Part shown: positions 14,957 through 26,137 of the stretch, piece after piece
Layout of the letters: each line of letters starts with the position of its first letter
How positions within the stretch are numbered: position 1 is the stretch's first letter
DNA from: Alphaproteobacteria bacterium
GTDB taxonomy: Bacteria > Pseudomonadota > Alphaproteobacteria > TMED109
Reading direction: 5' to 3'
Assembly: GCA_965116745.1 (NCBI GenBank)
Contig: OZ220701.1
Coordinates: 436,744-500,743, forward strand
DNA: 64,000 nucleotides
The notes under the pieces: generated by a model
The model's input: only the letters and a program-made list of their open reading frames with translations
What the model was told of the DNA's origin: nothing
Databases searched by the model: none
Program-made: the position numbers and the translations under genes

Positions 14957-15067
14957 AGGTGTTTCCTGTCGTCTCCCGGGTCACGGCGGGGGGCCGGCCG
15001 ATTTGGCCGACTAGCCCGAACGACAGGGTAGCCGCATTAGTTTCCGATTCAAGTAGTTTGTGTTATC

Positions 15068-16234
15068 TTATTGCCTGGTAAGATTCTTTACGATCTCGAA
15101 TTCCATTCCTGTCACGCGTGCAAGGTAGGTCGGGAGCGGGCGTGGCTCGGTGGTGCCGCGGGCCAGCCGGCGAGCACTGCGATAGTGGCCGCGGGCCGCA
15201 AAGTTCGCCGCGCGGGATCGCCAGTCGTCGCCATGTGTATCGACCAGGGCGGCCAGGCAATGAATGCCCTCGTAGGTGGACTGGCCCAGCGTGTTCAGGA
15301 CCGGCGCATGATCGCCATGGGTCGAGTGGTATTTCTCCCGGAACGACGCATTGGCCTCTGTCCGCAGCGATCCGAAATAGGCGGCCGAGGCATAGAAACG
15401 GTTGAGCGACTTCGGCCCGCTTGCCAGGAGCACGTTTTCCTCCACCGCGCAGGAAAAGCGGACGGTGCTCCGATGCAGGTCCGCGTCCCCGAAGGCCCTG
15501 TTGAACATCACCGCGTCCTGGCCGATCAGCGAGACCAGGACGGCATCCGCGCGGCAGCGGCGGATTTCATCCACGAACGGCCGCATGTCCGCCACGCCAA
15601 ACGGCAGGTAACGTTCGTAGACGAGGGGAGCGGCGCAGTCTCGCAGGATCCTCTTGGCAAAGGTATGTGAAGCCCGCGGCCACACGTAATCGTTACCGAT
15701 CATGGCCCATCGGCGGAACCTGTACGTCGAGTGAAGGTGGCCGATCGCGGGGCCCAGTTGCAGCGCCGGGGTTTCGCCGATGGCGATCACCCCGGGCGTC
15801 CGTTCGCCACCCTCGTAGAGGGGGGTATAGATGAACGGAACCCTCTGCCTGACCACTTTGCTCAGGCGTTGCCGGACAGCGCTGATGTGCATGCCCACGA
15901 TCGCATCGATCGCCTGCGCCTGCAGGAGGTCGCTCACGAGTGAGTCGACCGGAACCGCGGCTTCCTCGGCCGCATCGACCAGCAACAACTGGACCTGACG
16001 GCCGTCGATCCCGTCACGACGGTTCAGTTCGTTGACGGCTACCTGGGCGCTGGCGATACAGGATGGCGACCAGATCCCGGCGGCGCCGCAGAGCGGCACG
16101 AGCAGCGCAACGCGGTAGCAGGAACCCGGCGGCGGCAACAGCGCATCGAAATCGCGCCCATACTCCGGTGGCAGACTGGCCGGACCACACCGGCCAGCGG
16201 CAAATTCCTGGCCGCTGGAACAGCGTTGCTGCAT
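15068..16234 (-). CDS. cytoplasmic AmiC-like ligand-binding sensor (aliphatic amidase expression-regulating protein family)
   Basis: There is no signal peptide. Blocks FIYTPLYEGGERTPGVIAIGETP and IGNDYVWPRASH parallel Pseudomonas AmiC (CYPTPYEGFEYSPNIVYGG, IGSDYIYPRESN). The start is uncertain: ATG 16234 is preferred, because ATG 16303 overlaps the divergent marR start. Confidence 0.75.
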   Translation of the reverse strand: MQQRCSSGQEFAAGRCGPASLPPEYGRDFDALLPPPGSCYRVALLVPLCGAAGIWSPSCIASAQVAVNELNRRDGIDGRQVQLLLVDAAEEAAVPVDSLVSDLLQAQAIDAIVGMHISAVRQRLSKVVRQRVPFIYTPLYEGGERTPGVIAIGETPALQLGPAIGHLHSTYRFRRWAMIGNDYVWPRASHTFAKRILRDCAAPLVYERYLPFGVADMRPFVDEIRRCRADAVLVSLIGQDAVMFNRAFGDADLHRSTVRFSCAVEENVLLASGPKSLNRFYASAAYFGSLRTEANASFREKYHSTHGDHAPVLNTLGQSTYEGIHCLAALVDTHGDDWRSRAANFAARGHYRSARRLARGTTEPRPLPTYLARVTGMEFEIVKNLTRQ

Positions 16235-16301
16235 GCGGCAAGTACAGTTGAAAGTGGTTTCCAAGTCAACTATTTCTTGTGCGACAACGGCGGGTATCTC
16301 C

Positions 16302-16793
16302 ATGAGCGATTCAGCGAGGCCACTGACTGGCTACCTTTCGTACGTACTGGCCGCGGCTCATCGTGAAGTACGGATTTCCCTGTCTCACCGGCTGAAGGCT
16401 TTCGGGATCCAGATCGAGGCCTGGCGGATCATGGCGACACTGGCGTCGCATCCAGCGGCAACCATGAGTGAGCTTGCCGACCTGGTGCTGATGAACCCAC
16501 CGGCCTTGACCAAGCTTGTCGATCGCATGGTGTCAAGCGGGTTGGTGCACCGTCAGATTTCGAGGCAGGATCAGCGTCAGGTCAACTTGATTCTGACGGA
16601 CCTCGGAAAAAAGCGGATGTCGCAAATTCGGGCGGAAGTGCAGTCCGAGGACGACGAGATCCTTGCGGCGATCGGATCGGAGAACGTGGAGTTGTTTGTG
16701 GGCATGCTCCAGAAGATCTCACCGCGTGCAGTTCGCCTCTCGCAGAGACCGCCGCCTCGGCGACTGCCCAAGGCTGGCCGTACTGACCTCTAG
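16302..16793 (+). CDS. MarR-family transcriptional regulator
   Basis: Winged-HTH core IEAWRIMATLASHPAATMSELADLVLMNPPALTKLVDRMVSSGLVHRQISRQDQRQVNLILTDLGK. Internal ATG chosen as the start. Confidence 0.85.
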   Translation: MSDSARPLTGYLSYVLAAAHREVRISLSHRLKAFGIQIEAWRIMATLASHPAATMSELADLVLMNPPALTKLVDRMVSSGLVHRQISRQDQRQVNLILTDLGKKRMSQIRAEVQSEDDEILAAIGSENVELFVGMLQKISPRAVRLSQRPPPRRLPKAGRTDL

Positions 16794-17069
16794 TCAATCC
16801 TTTGCAGCGCCTGTTCACAGAGCTGCATGAAACTCCGGTGACGGGGAACAAGCGCGTCGGCCGGGAAGACGTGCTGAGCCCGCTGCCCGTCCACGCTGGC
16901 GTGCCCAGGTAGGGTCGGGGGCGCTTGCAAAATCGCCCCGCGATGGCGGTCCCTCCAGTCCAGTTGTTCTGGCAGCAGCCGAAAATATCGTTTACGATCC
17001 GGAAGTTGCGGTCGGCGGAGTGACGTCATCCCGTCCGGGTCGCAGCGGAATGGCCAGCGGGGTGGTGAG

Positions 17070-17804
17070 ATGCGAGGTTTCCGGGGCGCGCTACTTGCGG
17101 CCTGCGTTCTGTTGTTCGCGGCCACGCCGGGCGCGGGCGCGCAGGACGGGCCGTACGTCGGCGTGGCGGCGGGATGGAACCGGGCCAGCGGCGACTACAC
17201 CAAGGGCATTGGTCTCGACGTGCCGCCCGCGAGCTATGAGTCGGCGACCAGCGACGCGCGACACGGGGTCGGCACGCTGCGGGGGTCACTCGGTTACCGA
17301 ACCTTCGTCGCCGGTCCCCTGTACGTTTCGGGAGAGCTCGAGGCGACGCTCCACGGCGGCGGCGGGCCGGCAGGCTACCTGCGGGAGGGCACTGGCGAAG
17401 GGGACCGGGACGTGTGGCCAGGACCGTGGAGCGTGCAGCGGAAAGGCGGGCTAGGTATCAACGCCCGGCTCGGGTACGCGCCTGGCGGGCTGCTGGACGA
17501 AGGCGGATCGATTTATGTCGTCGCCGGCCTGCATTGGCAGCGGGCGTCCGTGCGGCGCGGTTCCGACATCGGCGGGGAAGCGATCCGGACCGCGGCGAAT
17601 CACACGTTTCGCCCGTGGGTTGTCGGCGTGGGCGTGGAGTGGGGAAGCTGGGCAAGCCGGATCGGGCTCGAGGTCCGGTACTCGTCAGCTGATCTGGAGT
17701 TCCGCACCGGAGGGGATGGTTCGGCGCTCGGGATGCCGCGCATCGATCACCGGTTCGGCGTGCGCGAGGTCGGCGTTCAGGTGGGTTACATTCACTCGTT
17801 CTGA
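17070..17804 (+). CDS. outer-membrane beta-barrel protein (OmpA-like 8-strand/porin family)
   Basis: Signal peptide MRGFRGALLAACVLLFAATPGAGAQD, alternating beta-strand pattern, and terminal ...VGVQVGYIHSF (C-terminal Phe). Confidence 0.75.
   Translation: MRGFRGALLAACVLLFAATPGAGAQDGPYVGVAAGWNRASGDYTKGIGLDVPPASYESATSDARHGVGTLRGSLGYRTFVAGPLYVSGELEATLHGGGGPAGYLREGTGEGDRDVWPGPWSVQRKGGLGINARLGYAPGGLLDEGGSIYVVAGLHWQRASVRRGSDIGGEAIRTAANHTFRPWVVGVGVEWGSWASRIGLEVRYSSADLEFRTGGDGSALGMPRIDHRFGVREVGVQVGYIHSF
17702..17804 (+). repeat. direct repeat, left copy (the functional 3-prime end of the OMP gene)
   Basis: Hand alignment with 21242..21344 is gap-free over ~103 nt, with roughly 80-85 percent identity. 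Encoded peptides: RTGGDGSALGMPRIDHRFGVREVGVQVGYIHSF versus RTGGDGSALGMPRIDHRFDVREFGVQVSYSRSF. Confidence 0.8.
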
Positions 17805-18040
17805 TCAAAACGGCAGAATCAGGCAACCGTGCGCGGCGGGGCGTCCTGAACGAGAAACTGTACCCGCACTTCGCGATCGTTTTCGGAGGCGAAGGTGGAT
17901 CGCTTGACCGGCAATCATGCAGATCTTCGCAGTTGCCATCGACGGACGAGATCCTGGCGGATCGTCCCGGTCCCGAACGTCACTAGGGGCAGCGTTCGTC
18001 GGCCCCGCCTGGTGCAGCGACCAATTCCGCACGGGACAAA

Positions 18041-20092
18041 ATGATACCGCCAACAGGCACGGTCGGTGCCGATAGGCTGCAGGCGGCGAGGCGGCGTCGA
18101 TGGCGAGGCCTCGCCCGATTGGCGCAGGCCAGCATCCGCCATGGCGCCCGGCTGTGCGCGGTTGTGTGGGCGTCAGCGGCAGTGGGCGCACATGCGGACA
18201 CGGTCGGGCAGCCCCTTTCCGGGGAACCCTGCATCGAGGATGGCCGGCGGCTGACGTACGGTTTCTTTGCGGACTTCCGACCCGTGAGCTTCAGCGAGAA
18301 CCTGGATCCGGACAGCCCCGCATTCGATGACCATCGTGGTTACGAGGCCGACCTCCTGACCGCGTTGGAGACCATGGCGGACGCCGGTCTTGCGTTTGAC
18401 CGACGGGGCATCGATATCTGGCCGGACATCTGGCTGCGACCGGCAGGCCCTGACTACGACTTTGTGGGCGGCGGCATCACCATACTGGATTCGCGCACAC
18501 GTGACGCCGATGGCGTGGAGCAGGTGGCGTTCACGTCCGGCCACATCGCCTTTCGACAGTCGCTGCTTGTGCGCGCCGAGGACGCGCAGCGCTACGCATC
18601 GCATGCCGACCTGGGTCCCGCGCGGGTGGCGGCGTTGGGCGGTACGACCGGGGAGCATCGGCTGCTGGTGCTGACCGGGGTGGTGGGGGCGGAGGGCAAC
18701 CTGGCGGCGGGCACTGCGATTCACCTGGCCGACGGCACTTCCCTTACGGCCGACGGCAGCGCCCATTATCAGATCACCGCGGCGGGCTCCAGCGCGAACC
18801 TGGCGAACCGTGTGCGTATCGAGGGACCATCGGGCACGGTGAAGGAAGTGCTCATTCTGTCCACAGATCAGGACCAGCTGGATGCGCTTGCGAGCGGGCG
18901 CGTGGACGCCATCGCCCGCGGCGAACTGGGCAACCGGGAGGCGTCCCGCAACGCTAACTCGCGCTTTGTCGTGACCGCGCTCGACCCGGCGGTGGAGTAC
19001 GGCGGCTTCGCGTTCGACAAGGACGACCAGGGACTCGCTGCGTGCGTCGATGCCCGGATCAACTACCTGACCGACGGTCGAAGCATCGGTTTTGCGGAAT
19101 GGCTCGACGACTCGCAGGCGTTCCTGCAGCGCGCCCGATACTGGAACGCGACGGAAGCGCTTGCCCAGATCTATGCCTATTCGGCGCTTACCGAGCTCGT
19201 GCGCGAACGATTCAATCGTACCTTGCGCGCCCCGGTCGACGCGGGCGATGCGGCGTGGGACCCCAACCCCGGCGGTCTCTGGCTGCGGGTGCAGCACGGA
19301 GGCCGGCGCAACGAGAACGCCCACGCCGACAGTCGCCCGTTCGACGGCGGCAGCTGGCGGGAAGACCGCAGCGAACTGCAAGTCGGTGTGTACCGGCCCC
19401 TCGACGGACTGGACGTCGACCTTCGAGCGGGGTTCACCGGACACGTATTCCGAGTGAATGCCCACGTCGAAAACGGTCGAGGCGCGCCGGGGTCGGATGC
19501 GGAAGCACTCGGTTACGGCGGCGGGGTGAGCCTGACCTGGATAGGCAGACGAGGCCCTTATGCGGCGACCGAGGCGCGATTCAGTCTTTGGGAAGCCGAG
19601 GTGAACTACCGGCGGCGGGAATTGTCGACCGGCATCGACGGACGGTCCTGGGGAGTGTCGGCGGAATCGGGCTGGCGATTCGGCGGGGACGGTTTCCGGC
19701 TGACGCCACGGCTGCGCGTCGCGTGGACCGGCGTGGGCTTCGATCGCTTCACCGACAGCGACGGCGTCACCGTGCGGCAGGACCATGACAACGCCTTGGA
19801 CGCCGCGTTGGGCGTGGCGGTTGGCATCGTCATGCCGGATTCCGGAATCCGGCTGTACGGTGACCTGGAGTTGGTGCGTGACTTCGAGGAAGACAGCGCC
19901 ATCGCCGCCTACGGATACCGGTTCCGCTCCGGCTTGGCGGAAACCTGGGCGCGGCTGCAGGTGGGCGTCCGCAAGGAGTTCTCGCCGCGCGTGAGTGCTG
20001 CGTTGAGCAGCGATTTCGGGGTGGGACTGGACCCTGACACCGAGAGCACGTCCATGTGGGACATTCAGGCGGCCCTGCGTTGGGCGCTGTGA
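18041..20092 (+). CDS. autotransporter with a family-3 solute-binding-protein (SBP_bac_3-like) passenger
   Basis: The N-terminal half has SBP3 blocks (YEADLLTALE...DFVGGGITILDSRTR...VAFTSGHIAFRQSLLVR...LGGTTGE...SGRVDAIARGEL...YGGFAFDKDD...INYLTDG). The C-terminal ~270 aa is an autotransporter beta-domain (WLRVQHGG...ELQVGVY...RLTPRLRVAWTGVGFDRFTD...ALRWAL). The likely true start is TTG 18119, which gives signal peptide MAQASIRHGARLCAVVWASAAVGAHA. Confidence 0.8.
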   Translation: MIPPTGTVGADRLQAARRRRWRGLARLAQASIRHGARLCAVVWASAAVGAHADTVGQPLSGEPCIEDGRRLTYGFFADFRPVSFSENLDPDSPAFDDHRGYEADLLTALETMADAGLAFDRRGIDIWPDIWLRPAGPDYDFVGGGITILDSRTRDADGVEQVAFTSGHIAFRQSLLVRAEDAQRYASHADLGPARVAALGGTTGEHRLLVLTGVVGAEGNLAAGTAIHLADGTSLTADGSAHYQITAAGSSANLANRVRIEGPSGTVKEVLILSTDQDQLDALASGRVDAIARGELGNREASRNANSRFVVTALDPAVEYGGFAFDKDDQGLAACVDARINYLTDGRSIGFAEWLDDSQAFLQRARYWNATEALAQIYAYSALTELVRERFNRTLRAPVDAGDAAWDPNPGGLWLRVQHGGRRNENAHADSRPFDGGSWREDRSELQVGVYRPLDGLDVDLRAGFTGHVFRVNAHVENGRGAPGSDAEALGYGGGVSLTWIGRRGPYAATEARFSLWEAEVNYRRRELSTGIDGRSWGVSAESGWRFGGDGFRLTPRLRVAWTGVGFDRFTDSDGVTVRQDHDNALDAALGVAVGIVMPDSGIRLYGDLELVRDFEEDSAIAAYGYRFRSGLAETWARLQVGVRKEFSPRVSAALSSDFGVGLDPDTESTSMWDIQAALRWAL

Positions 20093-20176
20093 GCTCACTC
20101 TGAACTTTGGGGGGAGCCAAGTTGTTGGGGTCTTGGGATAGATCAGCAAGGTGACGGAAGCACGCGCATCAGATCA

Positions 20177-20365
20177 ATGGGTCGCAACGCGCGGCTCGAA
20201 GAAGTATCCGAGGCCGGCAACATGGACCTACCCGGCTTCCGGTTGCATCGCCTCAAGGGCGATCTCGGAAGTTTCTGGTCGGTCACCGTGTCCGGCAACT
20301 GGCGCGTGATCTTCCGGTTCGAGGGTGGTCACGCCAGCGATGTCGATCTGGTCGATTATCACTAG
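20177..20365 (+). CDS. higB: HigB-type (RelE/ParE superfamily) toxin, apparently N-terminally truncated
   Basis: The C-terminal two-thirds matches plasmid-maintenance killer proteins (NMDLPGFRLHRLKGDLGSFWSVTVSGNWRVIFRFEGGHASDVDLVDYH). It is 62 aa versus ~92 aa typical, and upstream in-frame codons do not look HigB-like. Confidence 0.7.
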   Translation: MGRNARLEEVSEAGNMDLPGFRLHRLKGDLGSFWSVTVSGNWRVIFRFEGGHASDVDLVDYH

Positions 20366-20377
20366 GGAGAACAAGCG

Positions 20378-20668
20378 ATGCCGATGAAGAAGCCACCGCA
20401 TCCGGGCCTTTCGGTGCGGCACGACTGTCTGGCACCCTTGGGGCTGAACGTCACCGAGGGGGCAAAGCGCCTGGGGATCAGCCGCAAGCAGCTTTCCGAC
20501 ATCGTGAACGGTCATGCGGGCATTTCGCCGGCAATGGCAATTCGCCTCGACAAGGCATTCGGGGGCGGTGCCCACACGTGGTTGCGACTCCAGGCTGCCT
20601 ACGATTTGGCGCAAGCGATGAAGCACGCGGACGAAGTCAAGGTCGAGCGGCTGGTACCAGTGGCCTGA
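20378..20668 (+). CDS. higA: HigA-type XRE-family antitoxin
   Basis: [70 protein letters not shown] is the canonical HigA HTH. Confidence 0.9.
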
Positions 20669-20683
20669 TCCGTGGGGTCGCTT

Positions 20684-20881
20684 GCCGCCGCGGCTGCGCA
20701 GCCGAAGCCAGCCGATCTTCGGGAACCACGGCCTGCCGTCCCGGATGCGCACATCCTGCGGGACCGTCACACTGTCGCGGCCGCGGCGCGTGAACCGCGG
20801 CCGCCCGGCCTCGTCCCGGAAGAACCACCGCCCGGCGTCGGCCTGGCACTTGGCCACCGCGTCTGCGGAAGGCATGCCCTG
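20684..20881 (-). pseudogene. TnpB (IS605/IS607-type OrfB) N-terminal fragment
   Basis: ...FFRDEAGRPRFTRRGRDSVTVPQDVRIRDGRPWFPKIGWLRLRSR matches the conserved PRFK...SF..PQ......LPKIGWVR block of TnpB. It is truncated at the higA boundary. Confidence 0.5.
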
Positions 20882-20963
20882 TCGCAGCATGTGAAGGGTG
20901 GATTCTGGATGTTCCTCGTCCCCGGGGGTGTCGACTAACCGCGGTACATGGGCGATCCAGAGC

Positions 20964-21065
20964 TCACAACTCCGCGTGCTCGTGGCAAGCCCGGAACTGG
21001 TCGTCGATCGAGGCGGCGCTCTGCAGATCGGAGGAATAGCGGGCGTAGAGTGCGGCACGGATCAT
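20964..21065 (-). pseudogene. large serine recombinase, first ~33 codons only
   Basis: MIRAALYARYSSDLQSAASIDDQFRACHEHAEL-stop is the catalytic-serine N-terminus (ALYARYSSD.Q) of resolvase/large serine recombinase family proteins. Confidence 0.6.
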
Positions 21066-21241
21066 GTCATCACGCCTGTCGGGTCTGCGGTTTTCGGGTC
21101 TCTTCGGTCGGCCGGTTGTCATCGTCGTCACGACAAGTGTGGCACGCGCAGAAGACGAGCGGCCTGTAATCGAAGGGGAAGCCTTCATTCACGGCCTCCA
21201 GCCGGTCACACTGGAACTCACAACACAGTGATGAGAACCTG

Positions 21242-21344
21242 CCGCACGGGCGGGGACGGGTCGGCGCTCGGGATGCCACGCATCGACCACCGGTTCGATG
21301 TGCGCGAGTTCGGTGTTCAGGTGAGCTACTCCCGCTCGTTCCGA
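21242..21344 (+). repeat. direct repeat, right copy (displaced or pseudo 3-prime end of an OMP gene)
   Basis: See 17702..17804. In this copy the TGA stop is CGA, and no upstream OMP body is attached. Confidence 0.8.
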
Positions 21345-21526
21345 CCGGAGCAGGGTCGGCCGGTCGCAATCGAAATGACCGGGAAGGATCGGACCGCAGC
21401 GGATAGACCGAGGATCACCGAGGTAAGAGCCGGAGACGCTGCTGGATGGCGGTGTATCACACAATGGTCAGCTTTCAGGAAGCATTTTTGATCGATATTC
21501 CTTCCAAAATGATCTAGATTAGAAGG

Positions 21527-21730
21527 ATGAAAACTACCATTGATATTCCTGACCGAGAGCTTGAAGATGCCATCAGGTTCACGGGGGCAAAGACCAAGCG
21601 GGAAGCCGTGGTCGGTGCGATCGCCGACTTCAACCGTCGTATGCGCATGGCGGAGCTCATCCAATACGCCGGCACCTGCACCGAAATGATCGCGCCGGAT
21701 GAACTTCAGGCGGCCCGGCGCCAGGAGTGA
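21527..21730 (+). CDS. vapB: VapB-family (DUF2191-type) antitoxin
   Basis: MKTTIDIPDRELEDAIRFTGAKTKREAVVGAIADFNRR is the typical type II VapB/DUF2191 N-terminus. AGAAGGA lies upstream of the ATG. Confidence 0.85.
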   Translation: MKTTIDIPDRELEDAIRFTGAKTKREAVVGAIADFNRRMRMAELIQYAGTCTEMIAPDELQAARRQE

Positions 21731-21734
21731 GCCG

Positions 21735-22106
21735 TTGATCCTGATCGATACATCGTCATGGATACACATGCTGCGGCCCGGCGGTGACCCGAACGTGCGC
21801 AGCCGCGTAGAAGCCGCGTTGGCAAGCGGACAGGCGTGCTGGTGCCCACTCGTGCAGCTGGAACTTTGGAATGGAGCGCTCGGACGCCGTGAACGGACAG
21901 TGCTCCATCACTTTGAAGCTGTCTTGCCGGAACTCCCGATTGACGCGGAAGTATGGTCGGCCGCATTCGATCTGGCACGTCGCGCGCGTGCGCAAGCGAT
22001 AACGGTTCCGACCACCGACCTGATTATCGCCGCGTGTGCCAGGCGTCATCACGCAACGTTGGAAACAGCCGACTCAGATTTCGAATTGCTGGATGAGGTG
22101 CGTTAA
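21735..22106 (+). CDS. vapC: PIN-domain VapC toxin
   Basis: LILIDTSSWIH... gives the first PIN acidic residue, and ...TTDLIIAACA...LETADSDF the later ones. TTG at 21735 sits 7 nt after a GGAG inside the vapB stop region. Confidence 0.85.
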   Translation: MILIDTSSWIHMLRPGGDPNVRSRVEAALASGQACWCPLVQLELWNGALGRRERTVLHHFEAVLPELPIDAEVWSAAFDLARRARAQAITVPTTDLIIAACARRHHATLETADSDFELLDEVR

Positions 22107-22401
22107 CGCCGACCCGTAGTCACGATGACCGCGCAACACTTGGTCAGATCATGCGGTTCCGGTCGCTCCTCGATGAGCTCTTCATCGTCCCGCTTGTGCA
22201 TGAGCCCAGGTGGAACTCATCACTCTTGCGCTGAGCCTGACGGCAATGCGTCGCCGTTACACGTGGCAGCGCCGTGTCACCGGTGTCAATGGCAACTGAA
22301 AACGTCACCCTTTCGCGGGGCCGGCCGGGGGGTCGCGGGGGTATCGGCGTGCGTGTCGACGGGTCGCCCGCGCGCGGCACGGAGTAGAGCGCGCGGGCTG
22401 C

Positions 22402-22575
22402 TCATCCCGGGATCTCTTCGCGGTGGCTCGCGGTCCGGCTCCGCAGCAGGTCCTGGTGTTCGCGCATACGGTAGCTGTTGCCGCGGATGTGGATGACGAC
22501 GGCGTGGAGGAGGCGGCGGTCGATGAGCGCGGTGGCGTCGAACTGTTCGCTGGGCCGCTTGCAGAACGCCGGCAT
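22402..22575 (-). pseudogene. IS21-family IstB helper ATPase, C-terminal fragment
   Basis: ...DATALIDRRLLHAVVIHIRGNSYRMREHQDLL matches the IstB tail (AILDRLLHH..V..I.G.SYR.R). Confidence 0.55.
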
Positions 22576-22601
22576 CATCTTGGGCCGCCCGCATCCGAGG
22601 T

Positions 22602-23099
22602 CTATTCGCATGCGCCCGGCCCCACCGAGGATCGGCTCCCTTCGATGACGGTGAGAAGGTGAACGAGCTCCGGGTCGCCCATGCAATCCACCAGTGATGC
22701 CGCGAGATCAACCCCGTGCGCGGCGATCTCGTCCAGATCCTCGAAGCGGCGCACGTAGAATGCGCAACCGGCCTCGGCACGGGGGTGGGCGTTCCCCTCC
22801 CGCTCGCGCAATGCCCGGACATTCCAGAAGCCGACGGCGTCTCGCTGGCCCATGACCATGAAAGCGGCGAGCGCGCCACCGTGGGCCAGGGCGTGGGCAG
22901 TGCGGCTTTTCGCAGAGCCCAATGTGAGTACGATCCGCTCGCCCGTCGTGAGACCATGAGCGCGGTTGATACAGCTCTGAACCCGTTGCAGCGCTACTTT
23001 GGCCTCCTCTGGTTCCGGCTGCCACGCACCGGGGCCCGGCGCCGCGGTGCAACCGGCGAGCAGGAACGCGAGAGTGATGCCGAAGCAGGGTGATCTCAT
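22602..23099 (-). CDS. hypothetical lipoprotein
   Basis: Lipobox MRSPCFGITLAFLLAGC at the internal ATG 23099. No family recognised. The 3-prime end abuts the IstB fragment and may be truncated. Confidence 0.5.
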   Translation of the reverse strand: MRSPCFGITLAFLLAGCTAAPGPGAWQPEPEEAKVALQRVQSCINRAHGLTTGERIVLTLGSAKSRTAHALAHGGALAAFMVMGQRDAVGFWNVRALREREGNAHPRAEAGCAFYVRRFEDLDEIAAHGVDLAASLVDCMGDPELVHLLTVIEGSRSSVGPGACE

Positions 23100-23212
23100 T
23101 TTGCTGTCTCCCGGACCCGGTGCGGCAGCGGAAAGTCGCCTTCCCGCATCAGCTGGTAGGTCGCAGACAACTCGGGCCGCTTCGCTCCTGCATCTCTTCG
23201 CAACGCAGCGTC

Positions 23213-23308
23213 GGGGTCGACCGGGCCCGCACCCGGATCGGCCTGGCAAACCTCGCCTACAACTTCCAGCGCCTCGTCTTCCACGAGCGCCGGGCGGCTG
23301 TCGCCTGA
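23213..23308 (+). pseudogene. IS5-family transposase, C-terminal remnant
   Basis: RARTRIGLANLAYNFQRLVFHERR resembles the conserved C-terminal helix of IS5/IS1182-group transposases. Confidence 0.5.
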
Positions 23309-23494
23309 AGCTGCATCCAGGCCGCCAAACAGGGGCAAATCCCCCCGAACCTGGGCGCCGGCAGGACCCGCAGACGGCCATTCGGCCGGATTCCGGCAGG
23401 CATCACGCTTCACCCACGCCCATCATGCTGCCAGCGACACGATCACGCGCTTCCTGGAGACGTTCAGTCGGCAACCGTCTCCCGTCGCCCCGCT

Positions 23495-26137
23495 TCAGGG
23501 TAGCGCCACCTTCAGGCCGACGTAGTAGTAGCCGCCATTGAAGCCGAAAGGCGAACCTTCCGGATACAGCAGGCCCGCCACTTCGCCGGCCGGATTCTCT
23601 TCCGGATATTCGTCGAGGATGTTTTCTGCGCCGATCGCCAAGGTCACGGAATCGTTCCAGTCGAACGAGACCTCCGCGTCGAACAGCACCCGCGGGTCCG
23701 CATGGAATTGCAAGCTCTCGGTATCGGTATTGGTCGGCGCATCGAAGAATCCGCCGTAGTACCGACTCCGCGCCATCAATTGCCAGAGGCCCTGCCGGTG
23801 AGTCCAGGTTGCTACGTATCGCTGATCCGGTCGCCCTTCTTCAATCTGCCGCCTGCGTTTCTCGTTGGTGTAGCGCGGATCGTAGTCCGTAAGCGAAACG
23901 TCCGACCAGTTCCCAGCGAGGGTCAGGCTCGACTCTCCGCCCCAGAGTTCGAATGGCAACGTCGCCACGAGGTCGATTCCCGAGGCCTCCACGGTCTGCC
24001 GGTTCGTGAAAAATCGGACGGAAGTGAAGCTGGAAGCATCGGAGACGCCCGCCGTGAGCAGCGCGTCGATATCCTCGGGGGCAAGTTCGAACCTGCTGGT
24101 GAGGGTAATCCGGTCTTCAATCTCGATATTGTAGTAGTCGAGGGTGATGTCGAGCCGGTTCAGGCTGATGACGGTACCCATGGTGAAATTCGTGGACTGC
24201 TCGGGTGTGAGGGGCGTCGCACCCAACTGCTGTGCAACAGGATTGGACGGAGGCAAGGTGGCGACGTCTGCGAGCCTGCCGATGAGGAACTCCGTCGTCA
24301 CGTTCCGAACGGTGGCCTGCCCGGCGGTGGGAACCCTGAACCCGGTGCTGACGGAACTGCGCACGGCGACCGAATCCGACACCTGGAATCGGGCGGCCAG
24401 CTTGCCGTCCGTCGTATCGCCGAACAGCCTGTAGTCCTCGTAACGCACTGCAGCGCCCAGCAGGAAGCGCTCGGTCAGGTTTGACTCCAGGTCGACGTAG
24501 GCAGCGTGGGACCTCGACGTGGACTTGCCCGCATCACCGGGCTGGAACCCGGGAAACCCGTTCGACCCGACTCCAAACCCCTGCTCGGGAAGTCCGAATT
24601 CGTCGTCTATGTAGTGGGAATTCGGCTCGCCACTCGTGACCTCGAAGGTCTCGTCCCGGTACTCCAGGCCGAGGGCCACGTTGATCGGAATCCCCGCGCT
24701 GCCGATGTCGAAAGGCCTGGACAGGTCGAAATTGACCACGCGGTCCGTTTCCGTATAGGCGCCCGCGTCGTAGTAGGTCGGAATGTTGTTGCGGAGACCC
24801 AGCAACTGCGGATTGATGGTGTTGTAGATATAGAAGTCGGCGTGGCTCCGGCCGGTCCCCGCACTCAGGTCGTAGAACCAGTCGCCCCGTTTTCCACGCA
24901 GGCCGACAGCCAGGGCACGATCATCGATGTAGCCGCCGAACTGCGGGGTGAAGCCGCCGGGAAATTTCTCGTACAGCGTGTAGCAATCGGGATGATCCCT
25001 GACGGCCGCGAGCGCCTCGGCAGCGGGCGCATGGCCCACAATCGGAATTGGCGGACAATTGGCCGACCGACTACCGCCTAGGTCGGCGACTTTGATGGTC
25101 GCGGTGCCGTCGGGCAACGGATCCCCCTTGAAGACCCCTTCACGCGTGTGCGGGTTTCGGAAGTAGAACCCCCCCTCAACCTGGCGTTCGGCCCAATTGC
25201 CGAAGGCATAGACTTCCGCTCCGTTGGGAAGATCAACGCCAAAGTTGCCGAACAGTTTGTAGTCGCCGGAGTACTTGGGCGATCCCCAGATCTGGGCCGT
25301 CGGCTGCCGTACGTGCGCGTTGCCGGCATCGACGAGATCCTGAGCGTCTCCGCGTTGCACGGCGCGGTCGGTGGGTTCGGAATCCTTCCACTCGAAACTC
25401 AGATTGGCGAAGCCGTCGGCTGTCAGTGGCAGGCCCACGTTGCCCGCCAGGGTCAGCACGTCACCGTCGCCTTCGTAGTGGCTGCCCCACCTGGCGTCCA
25501 CCGTGGTGCCGGAACTGCCGTCCTTCAGGACGAAGTTCAGGATGCCCGCAATCGCATCGGAGCCGTACTGCGCCGAGGCACCGTCCCTCAGCACTTCGAG
25601 CCGGTCCAGGGCAATCGCCGGAATCGCGGAAATATCGGCGCCTTGCGCCCCGGTCGAGATGCCCGATCCAAGCCACGTGATCACTGCGCCGCGGTGGCGG
25701 CGCTTGCCGTTGACCAGCACCAATGTCGAGTCCGGCGGGAGGCCGCGCAACGTCGCCGGCCGGATGAACGATGCTGCGTCGCTGATGGGCTCCAGGCCGA
25801 CGTTGTACGACGGGACCTGGCTGGCAACCAGGGCATCCAGGTTGTTGTCGCCCTGCATAACGAAATCGTCACCGGCGACGACATCGACCGGAACCGGGGA
25901 TTCGGTAGCAGAACGATCTCTTCTGCGCGATCCGATGACGACGATGTCCTCGATGAGGGCATCGCTGTCCGCCCCGATCGCTTCAGGAGTGGCATCCTGG
26001 GCGACAGCCGGGCGTTCGACCACCAACGAAGCACAGCCTACAAGGCAGACGGACAAGACCCATCGCAATGCAAGCATCCTGAGCCGATGGCAAGATTGGC
26101 CAACGGTTACGGAACCGGCGAGCGCCCTGATCATCAC
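23495..26137 (-). CDS. TonB-dependent outer-membrane receptor
   Basis: Signal peptide, then plug blocks (IEDIVVIGSRR, LRGLPPDSTLVLVNGKRR, LEVLRDGASAQYGSDAIAGILNFVLK), then a long barrel. GGAGGGGAG lies upstream of the ATG at 26137. Confidence 0.9.
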   Translation of the reverse strand: MMIRALAGSVTVGQSCHRLRMLALRWVLSVCLVGCASLVVERPAVAQDATPEAIGADSDALIEDIVVIGSRRRDRSATESPVPVDVVAGDDFVMQGDNNLDALVASQVPSYNVGLEPISDAASFIRPATLRGLPPDSTLVLVNGKRRHRGAVITWLGSGISTGAQGADISAIPAIALDRLEVLRDGASAQYGSDAIAGILNFVLKDGSSGTTVDARWGSHYEGDGDVLTLAGNVGLPLTADGFANLSFEWKDSEPTDRAVQRGDAQDLVDAGNAHVRQPTAQIWGSPKYSGDYKLFGNFGVDLPNGAEVYAFGNWAERQVEGGFYFRNPHTREGVFKGDPLPDGTATIKVADLGGSRSANCPPIPIVGHAPAAEALAAVRDHPDCYTLYEKFPGGFTPQFGGYIDDRALAVGLRGKRGDWFYDLSAGTGRSHADFYIYNTINPQLLGLRNNIPTYYDAGAYTETDRVVNFDLSRPFDIGSAGIPINVALGLEYRDETFEVTSGEPNSHYIDDEFGLPEQGFGVGSNGFPGFQPGDAGKSTSRSHAAYVDLESNLTERFLLGAAVRYEDYRLFGDTTDGKLAARFQVSDSVAVRSSVSTGFRVPTAGQATVRNVTTEFLIGRLADVATLPPSNPVAQQLGATPLTPEQSTNFTMGTVISLNRLDITLDYYNIEIEDRITLTSRFELAPEDIDALLTAGVSDASSFTSVRFFTNRQTVEASGIDLVATLPFELWGGESSLTLAGNWSDVSLTDYDPRYTNEKRRRQIEEGRPDQRYVATWTHRQGLWQLMARSRYYGGFFDAPTNTDTESLQFHADPRVLFDAEVSFDWNDSVTLAIGAENILDEYPEENPAGEVAGLLYPEGSPFGFNGGYYYVGLKVALP

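Follow-up and report, generated by a model that had tools for sequence, protein, structure and literature searches.

The 64,000-nt stretch analysed here, referred to as the window (positions 436,744 to 500,743 of contig OZ220701.1, assembly GCA_965116745.1 of an Alphaproteobacteria bacterium of the lineage TMED109), encodes an autotransporter whose passenger is related to family-3 solute-binding proteins (SBPs) of the SBP_bac_3 type. The source bacterium is sponge-associated and the gene is intact. Both halves of the protein are under purifying selection, and the passenger module is distributed over at least nine phyla, where it is tethered in various ways and has no genes of an amino-acid importer beside it. 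We propose, with a probability of about one half, that the protein is a surface-tethered, importer-independent receptor for a host-derived ligand or end-group that bears a carboxylate. A preliminary description, made from the letters of the stretch alone, had assigned to positions 18041-20092 of the plus strand a 683-aa protein with a signal peptide, a family-3 SBP region of about 300 aa, a short linker and an autotransporter barrel ending in ...LRWAL. The open reading frame (ORF) lies exactly there, and its parts are the following:

18041..20092, plus strand: whole gene of the autotransporter with SBP-like passenger, 683 aa (ORF call, homologues, ratio of nonsynonymous to synonymous substitutions, dN/dS)
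18041..18196, plus strand: Sec-type signal peptide, aa 1-52 (read from the sequence and aligned relatives)
18230..19150, plus strand: passenger, a divergent SBP_bac_3-type module, aa 64-370 (profile, Pfam, Foldseek)
18668..18844, plus strand: family-specific insertion of ~55 aa in lobe 2, aa ~210-268, for which mainly beta structure is predicted (profile alignment, AlphaFold)
19151..19270, plus strand: linker, aa 371-410, with a helix predicted to span the pore (TEALAQIYAYSALTELVRERF) and then a loop (AlphaFold, Foldseek, alignment)
19271..20089, plus strand: type Va translocator beta-barrel, aa 411-683, ending in ...LRWAL (TIGR01414, Foldseek, AlphaFold)

The passenger is related to family-3 SBPs and to no other group, although the sequence taken singly stays below the Pfam cut-off. 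By itself it gives weak matches to the NCBIfam model of EhuB (TIGR02995, 5e-7) and to PDB entry 5jos (0.0018), and the best curated matches of its C-terminal part, lobe 2, are the ectoine binder EhuB and binders of Lys/Arg/Orn and of cystine. A profile of 65 relatives compared with the PDB finds AncCDT-1, an ancestral amino-acid binder, at 7e-7. SBP_bac_3 matches 55 of these 65 relatives at E <= 0.01, and its cut-off is exceeded by P0028 (45.4 bits), P0125 (29.9) and L075 (28.2). AlphaFold models were made of the full-length protein with 82 sequences and of the passenger alone with 65. All of the 50 best Foldseek matches of the passenger model were family-3 binding proteins, including ArtJ, ArgBP, AbpA, EhuB, cyclohexadienyl dehydratase (CDT), GluR0 and a cystine receptor. 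Lobe 2 was modelled confidently and resembles the isolated domain 2 of ArgBP with a template modelling (TM) score of 0.78, whereas the TM score over the whole passenger reaches just 0.3-0.4 because lobe 1 is unfolded in the models. Of the two-lobe structure expected in the preliminary description, the models show lobe 2 but not lobe 1; judging from the sequence relations and the SBP-only list of Foldseek matches, the passenger as a whole probably adopts the two-lobe fold. It is of alpha/beta type and contains no beta-helix; neither pertactin nor autochaperone profiles of Pfam-A or NCBIfam matched the protein. In the insertion of lobe 2, ~65 profile positions face ~13 residues of AncCDT-1, and strands are predicted at residues 226-229, 234-236 and 257-261 with a predicted local distance difference test (pLDDT) score of ~75-94.

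The translocator itself is a type Va barrel of the ordinary kind. The NCBIfam model TIGR01414 matches aa 378-656 with an E-value of 3.9e-22 and 78.9 bits (cut-off 16), the barrel was modelled by AlphaFold with a pLDDT of ~80, and its best Foldseek match is AIDA-I (4mee; E 7.5e-16, TM 0.85, root-mean-square deviation 2.9, 326 aligned columns with the transport unit), with EstA, EspP, Hbp, AaaA, BrkA and NalP as further matches in this order. A hmmscan of the protein against Pfam-A found no match to PF03797, and searches for this architecture by Pfam only would for this reason miss the gene; relatives do match PF03797 (best E 4e-26), even ones that are 85% identical. Among the relatives there are matches to both Pfam families of the proposed architecture; on the window protein SBP_bac_3 stays below its cut-off and the barrel is recognised through TIGR01414. 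The protein ends in Leu with a Trp at position -2 (...LRWAL), and the clade of the Nitrospirales, introduced below, ends in ...LRIDF. The linker is indeed short (~40 aa), with a helix predicted at residues 371-386 (AlphaFold, pLDDT 71-84) that is kept in 20 of the 20 aligned fusion proteins. Since the module ends at N369-A370 and the helix starts at T371, the two are joined directly, with neither a beta-helix nor an autochaperone between them.

The N-terminus shows the features of a Sec-type signal peptide, as had been claimed: a basic n-region, a hydrophobic core (LCAVVWASAAVGA) and an expected cleavage site after residue 52, between AHA and D. The signal peptide was judged by eye from the sequence, and the hydrophobic core and the A-x-A pattern are common to the aligned relatives. 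The residues preceding the core are not conserved among them, and translation could for this reason start at the TTG codon at 18119, which is the start called in the 98% identical relative P0002; this would give a protein of 657 aa and leave the mature form unchanged. An antisense ORF (18173-20149, 658 aa) is also open. Long antisense ORFs are common at 67% G+C, and the plus-strand frame is the real gene, given its full-length homologues at E = 0 and dN/dS values of 0.18-0.39. In NCBI these relatives carry merely the label "autotransporter domain-containing protein".

The full-length homologues (P0002-P0025) are 98-49% identical, the architecture recurs in ~25 clusters, and 20 full-length proteins with identities of 49-98% align from end to end. 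Carriers of the fusion are Proteobacteria and all six Nitrospirota loci (Nitrospirales); between these two clades the barrels are 37% identical (E 1e-68) and the passengers ~63%. Pairwise dN/dS amounts to 0.18-0.23 for the passenger and to 0.28-0.39 for the barrel. That the gene might be a chimeric assembly or a decaying pseudogene could be suspected from its position in a graveyard of mobile elements and from a relative (L001/L022) with a frameshifted copy. However, the frame is intact, the junction between passenger and barrel is crossed by contigs of separate runs, the ~25 clusters come from independent assemblies of two phyla, and both halves have dN/dS values far below 1. We consider the probability of such an artefact negligible, and as far as sequence data allow it is refuted. 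Nor is the barrel a generic outer-membrane protein (OMP) fused by misassembly, since barrel and passenger are conserved together in many independent assemblies. As to the frameshifted copy, one contig of a gammaproteobacterial metagenome-assembled genome (MAG) carries two paralogous autotransporter genes ~37 kb apart (L022:7671-9128 and L023:7869-9881), one of them intact (670 aa) and the other frameshifted after ...VRHGG, which may reflect a long-read error or a pseudogene.

The module has been fused to type V barrels repeatedly. In P0137 and P0143 it precedes autotransporter barrels that are recognised by Pfam and have no significant BLAST similarity to the barrel of the window, and in the tree of the module barrel-fused forms stand in at least three places, with well-supported branches forcing at least four changes; it is these unrelated barrels and the tree placement that argue for repeated joining. 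A further candidate, P0124, has a barrel-like C-terminal part of 309 aa (...GRVRF) and was not accepted as a proven autotransporter, as neither PF03797 nor TIGR01414 matches it.

The module forms a small and sharply bounded family. Compared with 1.84 billion representatives, the passenger alone retrieves 291 proteins with E-values up to 0.001, of which 97 reach 1e-30 or better, and 541 stretches encode the module in contigs representing one genome per species. The best 80 of these 541 loci are all from MAGs and belong to Poribacteria, Latescibacterota, Chloroflexota (Dehalococcoidia, SAR202, Caldilineaceae), Nitrospirales, Dadabacteria/Thermodesulfobacteriota, Acidobacteriota, Spirochaetia and Proteobacteria, their status as sponge or coral cobionts being read from lineage and isolate names. 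The named runs that contain three distant copies, namely the gene of the window, a Dehalococcoidia copy and a Spirochaetia copy, are mostly sponge metagenomes, with some from coral, coral reefs and marine samples. The ~310-aa module is kept at 50-75% identity among sponge and coral associates from at least nine phyla, and it is nearly always tethered to a membrane by a lipoprotein signal, a C-terminal tail or a barrel. Poribacteria, Chloroflexota, Latescibacterota and Acidobacteriota combine a lipobox signal with the module, and the Dadabacteria form consists of a signal peptide, the module and a tail with Cys, a transmembrane segment and basic residues. This tail form is the sister of the autotransporter clade of the window with 99% support in the module tree, which argues that the anchor is interchangeable while the module is kept. 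In other architectures an Ig-like N-terminal domain or Spondin_N precedes the module, or modules occur in tandem, and there are fusions with Peripla_BP_6, PDZ plus fn3 (P0126), Calx-beta, sCache_2, a GH16-like domain and an S41 peptidase; the partners of extracellular type are Big_1, fn3, Calx-beta, Spondin_N, PDZ and the S41 peptidase. Its conservation over these phyla, together with the tethering and the lack of an adjoining importer, suggests a specific ligand shared by the host environments. The confinement of the family, as found here, to host-associated bacteria adds to the interest of the fusion.

Several details of these forms deserve mention in their own right. The tail of the Dadabacteria/Thermodesulfobacteriota form (L015:7001-8236, L024-L030, L037) reads DGCS, ~10 residues, a hydrophobic helix and R(K/E)RIWR (also RERIWR), and is akin to sorting signals of the exosortase or myxosortase type; none of the NCBIfam models of sorting signals matched it. 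In these loci the module gene always sits between lepB (Peptidase_S26) and pyrR. Four proteins (P0128, P0132, P0151 and P0133) have an Ig-like segment of ~90 aa behind the module that ends in (F/Y/L)LRGWR(L/V/W)(S/A)L, in P0133 followed by an S41 peptidase. P0172 (526 aa) continues from the module into a Thr-rich run, a Cys-rich segment and a coiled-coil-like tail of eukaryote-like appearance. A gene for an S41 C-terminal-processing peptidase also directly follows the module gene in a Latescibacterota locus (L014:8604-9986); together with the one fusion in P0133 and the PDZ plus fn3 form, this single adjacency may be a lead towards the recognition of peptide C-termini.

According to the mechanism that we favour, the precursor would be exported by Sec, the C-terminal barrel would insert into the outer membrane, and the passenger of ~307 aa would be threaded out and stay covalently tethered at the surface as in EstA. 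There it might bind a small molecule derived from the host or holobiont, or the matching end-group of the host matrix, with recognition or attachment rather than delivery of a solute to a permease as its purpose. The gene itself probably arrived on an integrative element that has since decayed. Action outside the envelope is favoured because the module has repeatedly been placed on devices of the envelope surface and a periplasmic receptor of an importer needs no type V barrel. A more far-reaching version, in which the module would be a holobiont recognition receptor, spread horizontally over at least nine phyla, displayed on the anchor that suits each envelope and directed at one host-derived molecule or matrix end-group, by which the host recognises, retains or spares its symbionts, is put forward only tentatively. 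If that version is correct, the autotransporter forms would be natural evidence that the module acts outside the cell, and they would be the first known in nature whose passenger is a non-enzymatic binding protein with a long-range disulfide.

Nutrient scavenging would be another use for a binding module at the surface: the tethered protein might capture a solute in short supply (an amino acid, a betaine or something similar) and concentrate it locally or pass it to a porin or uptake system. Surface binding proteins are known to feed TonB-dependent transporters. The clamp residues of amino-acid binders are kept in the module (see below), the curated matches of lobe 2 mentioned above are binders of such solutes, and in monoderm Chloroflexota the lipoprotein form resembles the receptor of an ordinary importer. 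In addition, the Nitrospirales loci (L018:5783-9031, L019:1152-9031) offer a metabolic context, in that the autotransporter gene starts 9 nt after a gene for a sulfoxide synthase similar to EgtB/OvoA/SenA, and the cluster further encodes a true EgtD (TIGR03438, 332 bits, cut-off 291), a protein similar to pyridoxal-phosphate-dependent lyases, and an OsmF-type (betaine-type) fusion of binding protein and permease together with its ATPase. The cluster resembles those for ergothioneine and may serve as a lead to a ligand of the histidine-betaine type, nothing more. Yet no uptake component is conserved beside the gene in any phylum: in the Pfam-annotated neighbourhoods no permease/ATPase pair for polar amino acids adjoins the module, and clustering of the neighbouring ORFs of 99 loci revealed no partner that is conserved across phyla. 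The TonB-dependent receptor of the window lies outside the islet described below and is absent near the other copies, and a binder tethered outside the outer membrane cannot dock on a permease of the inner membrane. We therefore regard scavenging as unlikely. Oxidoreductases of the GFO/IDH/MocA family and sulfatases, which recur near the module in Latescibacterota and Poribacteria, were also considered as partners and discarded as chance, as the Latescibacterota loci share one synteny. Both families are greatly expanded in the genomes of these two phyla.

The binding pocket was mapped by a HMMER alignment to AncCDT-1, with residue roles taken from 10.1101/157495. In this alignment Y22, W60, R85, Q100, T132 and S133 of AncCDT-1 correspond to F79, W127, R152, Q173, T203 and G204 of the module, and these six residues are invariant in 82 of 82 sequences. 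The arginine in the column of R85 and R152 presumably clamps the carboxylate of the ligand, as it does in LAO/HisJ-type proteins. The roles of Y22, W60, Q/K100 and T132 in the CDT lineage have been described, Asp170 has been tied to the recognition of alpha-amino versus alpha-keto acid substrates, and the general acid of CDT, Glu173, has been placed in a hydrogen-bond network with Lys100, Asn128 and Asn133 (10.1101/157495). The column of Asp170 falls ambiguously at G294 or E295, and the columns of Glu173, Lys100, Asn128 and Asn133 hold L296, Q173, L199 and G204, with E295 one column before L296 in an alignment that is uncertain by one position. With the clamp residues invariant and the Glu173 column not acidic, the pocket seems to suit a carboxylate-bearing ligand. 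Further invariant charged or polar residues are H98, E102, E110, R121, R154, H168, R172, R178, E205, R207, N298, D315 and E319.

Could the module instead have turned catalytic and act as an enzyme at the surface, in the way that cyclohexadienyl dehydratase arose from this fold? Its closest solved sequences belong to the AncCDT/CDT lineage, its conservation is unusually high and extends to many invariant charged residues, it occurs fused or adjacent to an S41 peptidase and fused to a GH16-like domain, and solved passengers other than beta-helices are enzymes (PMC9289746). On the other hand, the position of the general acid is held by L296 (subject to the ambiguity of one position with E295), the closest match, AncCDT-1, is an ancestral amino-acid binder that preceded the enzyme (title of 5t0w), and no curated enzyme family of Pfam-A or NCBIfam matches. 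A CDT-like activity of the passenger is not supported by these residue assignments, and a surface enzyme in general appears improbable.

A number of observations weigh against a surface receptor and have to be set beside the evidence above. The match to SBP_bac_3 has an E-value of 0.0094 and 16.1 bits against a cut-off of 26.4, and lobe 1 (aa ~60-170) has a pLDDT below 50 in both AlphaFold models. The barrel ends in Leu where an aromatic residue is usual. The lipoprotein form looks ordinary in most phyla and may serve an ABC importer encoded elsewhere. The only RNA-labelled run that holds the gene, X3, probably contains DNA and was rejected as evidence of transcription, as genes and spacers are evenly covered (depth ~8-25 over window positions 15000-24000), like in the DNA runs. 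Exposure of the passenger at the surface is assumed by analogy with the type Va pathway, and ligand binding and biological role are suggested by the relations of the sequence. Most importantly, the passenger contains an invariant pair of cysteines (C64 and C335) that are 271 residues apart, while autotransporters are stated to pass closely spaced disulfides only, and a folded MalE passenger interfered with translocation (PMC3546941).

These last points are also what would speak for retention in the periplasm, where a C64-C335 disulfide would form and block translocation, leaving the barrel as a mere anchor in the outer membrane. However, purifying selection has preserved both the linker helix and the barrel in two phyla, which would be hard to explain for an anchor. 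The module has been fused independently to other autotransporter barrels, and a periplasmic tether could be had far more simply with a lipoprotein anchor such as the module has elsewhere. Such retention thus seems very improbable to us.

The gene lies in a decayed integrative islet (17702-21344) with the following elements:

17070..17804, plus strand: OMP_b-brl gene (PF13505), 244 aa, upstream of the autotransporter; integration probably took place at its 3' end
17702..17804, plus strand: left direct repeat, the 3' end of the live OMP gene, with the translation ...RTGGDGSALGMPRIDHRFGVREVGVQVGYIHSF before the stop codon
20177..20668, plus strand: islet cargo, an N-terminally truncated higB of 62 aa (20177-20365) and an intact higA (20378-20668)
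20964..21065, minus strand: putative serine-recombinase stub, N-terminal 33 codons (MIRAALYARYSSDLQSAASIDDQF...) and then a stop, pointing outwards (motif recognition, no profile match)
21242..21344, plus strand: right direct repeat, a displaced remnant of the same OMP gene end that lacks the stop codon, with the translation RTGGDGSALGMPRIDHRFDVREFGVQVSYSRSF...

A horizontally acquired islet had been suspected in the preliminary description, and the remnants agree with it. The flanking direct repeats of 103 nt are 83% identical and encode near-identical peptides, and the arrangement is as expected of an element that inserted itself at the 3' end of the OMP gene, supplied a replacement end and then decayed. 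Near-identical genes in L010 match Pfam HigB-like_toxin and HTH_3, and HigB is full length in L011 (92 aa). An 85% identical copy of the autotransporter gene from another sponge metagenome adjoins the conjugation genes trbL/virB8/cagX/trbI and an intact higBA, and the other copies have unrelated neighbours. The G+C content of the gene is not distinct from that of its surroundings, and the islet is called from the repeats and element remnants, not from base composition. Downstream of the islet there is an intact vapBC pair (~21518-22106).

Compared with pertactin-like autotransporters with beta-helical passengers, the protein of the window has neither a beta-solenoid nor an autochaperone. To our knowledge, natural autotransporter passengers are beta-helices and, rarely, globular enzymes. 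A natural binding-protein passenger was not found in targeted searches of an incomplete body of literature, which is absence of evidence only, and two large surveys of autotransporters (one of them PMC9289746) mention none. With the SBP_bac_3 (PF00497) binders of importers (LAO/HisJ, ArtJ, ArgBP, EhuB and AncCDT-1) the passenger shares the ordered motif set, the aromatic pair and the Arg/Thr clamp. It differs from them in its score below the cut-off, the ~55-aa insertion in lobe 2, the cysteine pair, its tethering without an adjoining permease or ATPase, and its occurrence, among the loci examined, in sponge and coral lineages. Cyclohexadienyl dehydratase (PheC/CDT) belongs to the closest solved sequence lineage and is unlike the passenger in its general acid, the column of which is non-acidic here (L296), and the nearest match within that lineage is the ancestral binder.

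Two autotransporters of Pseudomonas aeruginosa with globular passengers come closest in architecture. AaaA combines a globular, non-beta-helical passenger with a type Va barrel, but this passenger is an M28 peptidase, whereas we find a solute-binding fold and no peptidase signature. AaaA is an arginine-specific aminopeptidase and acts on amino-acid-type substrates at the surface. Its structure (9oqa), which ranks eighth among the fold matches, is a later solved example of a globular passenger. EstA (3kvn), the second-best fold match of the full-length model, likewise carries a globular passenger of ~300 aa directly on the linker helix of a type Va barrel. Both proteins lack a beta-helix stalk and an obvious cleavage site, and the protein of the window is therefore probably retained on the cell as EstA is. 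The passenger of EstA is a GDSL hydrolase, unlike the passenger described here, which probably has the two-lobe binding-protein fold, in which no catalytic motif was recognised and in which a long-range conserved Cys pair occurs that EstA does not have. A globular domain placed directly on the linker corresponds to the rare "type 3" of Clarke et al. (2022), which includes the GDSL-lipase autotransporters and of which EstA was the sole solved example at the time (PMC9289746). The use of an SBP as passenger has a parallel in the engineered display constructs of MalE with the IgA-protease beta-domain. These are artificial, and folding of MalE hindered their translocation (cited in PMC3546941); engineered binding-protein passengers are reported to translocate poorly, while the protein of the window is natural, conserved and under selection. 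With its two cysteines 271 residues apart, a conserved natural passenger of this kind puts the limits stated for the type Va pathway to the test, and it could inform the design of surface display.

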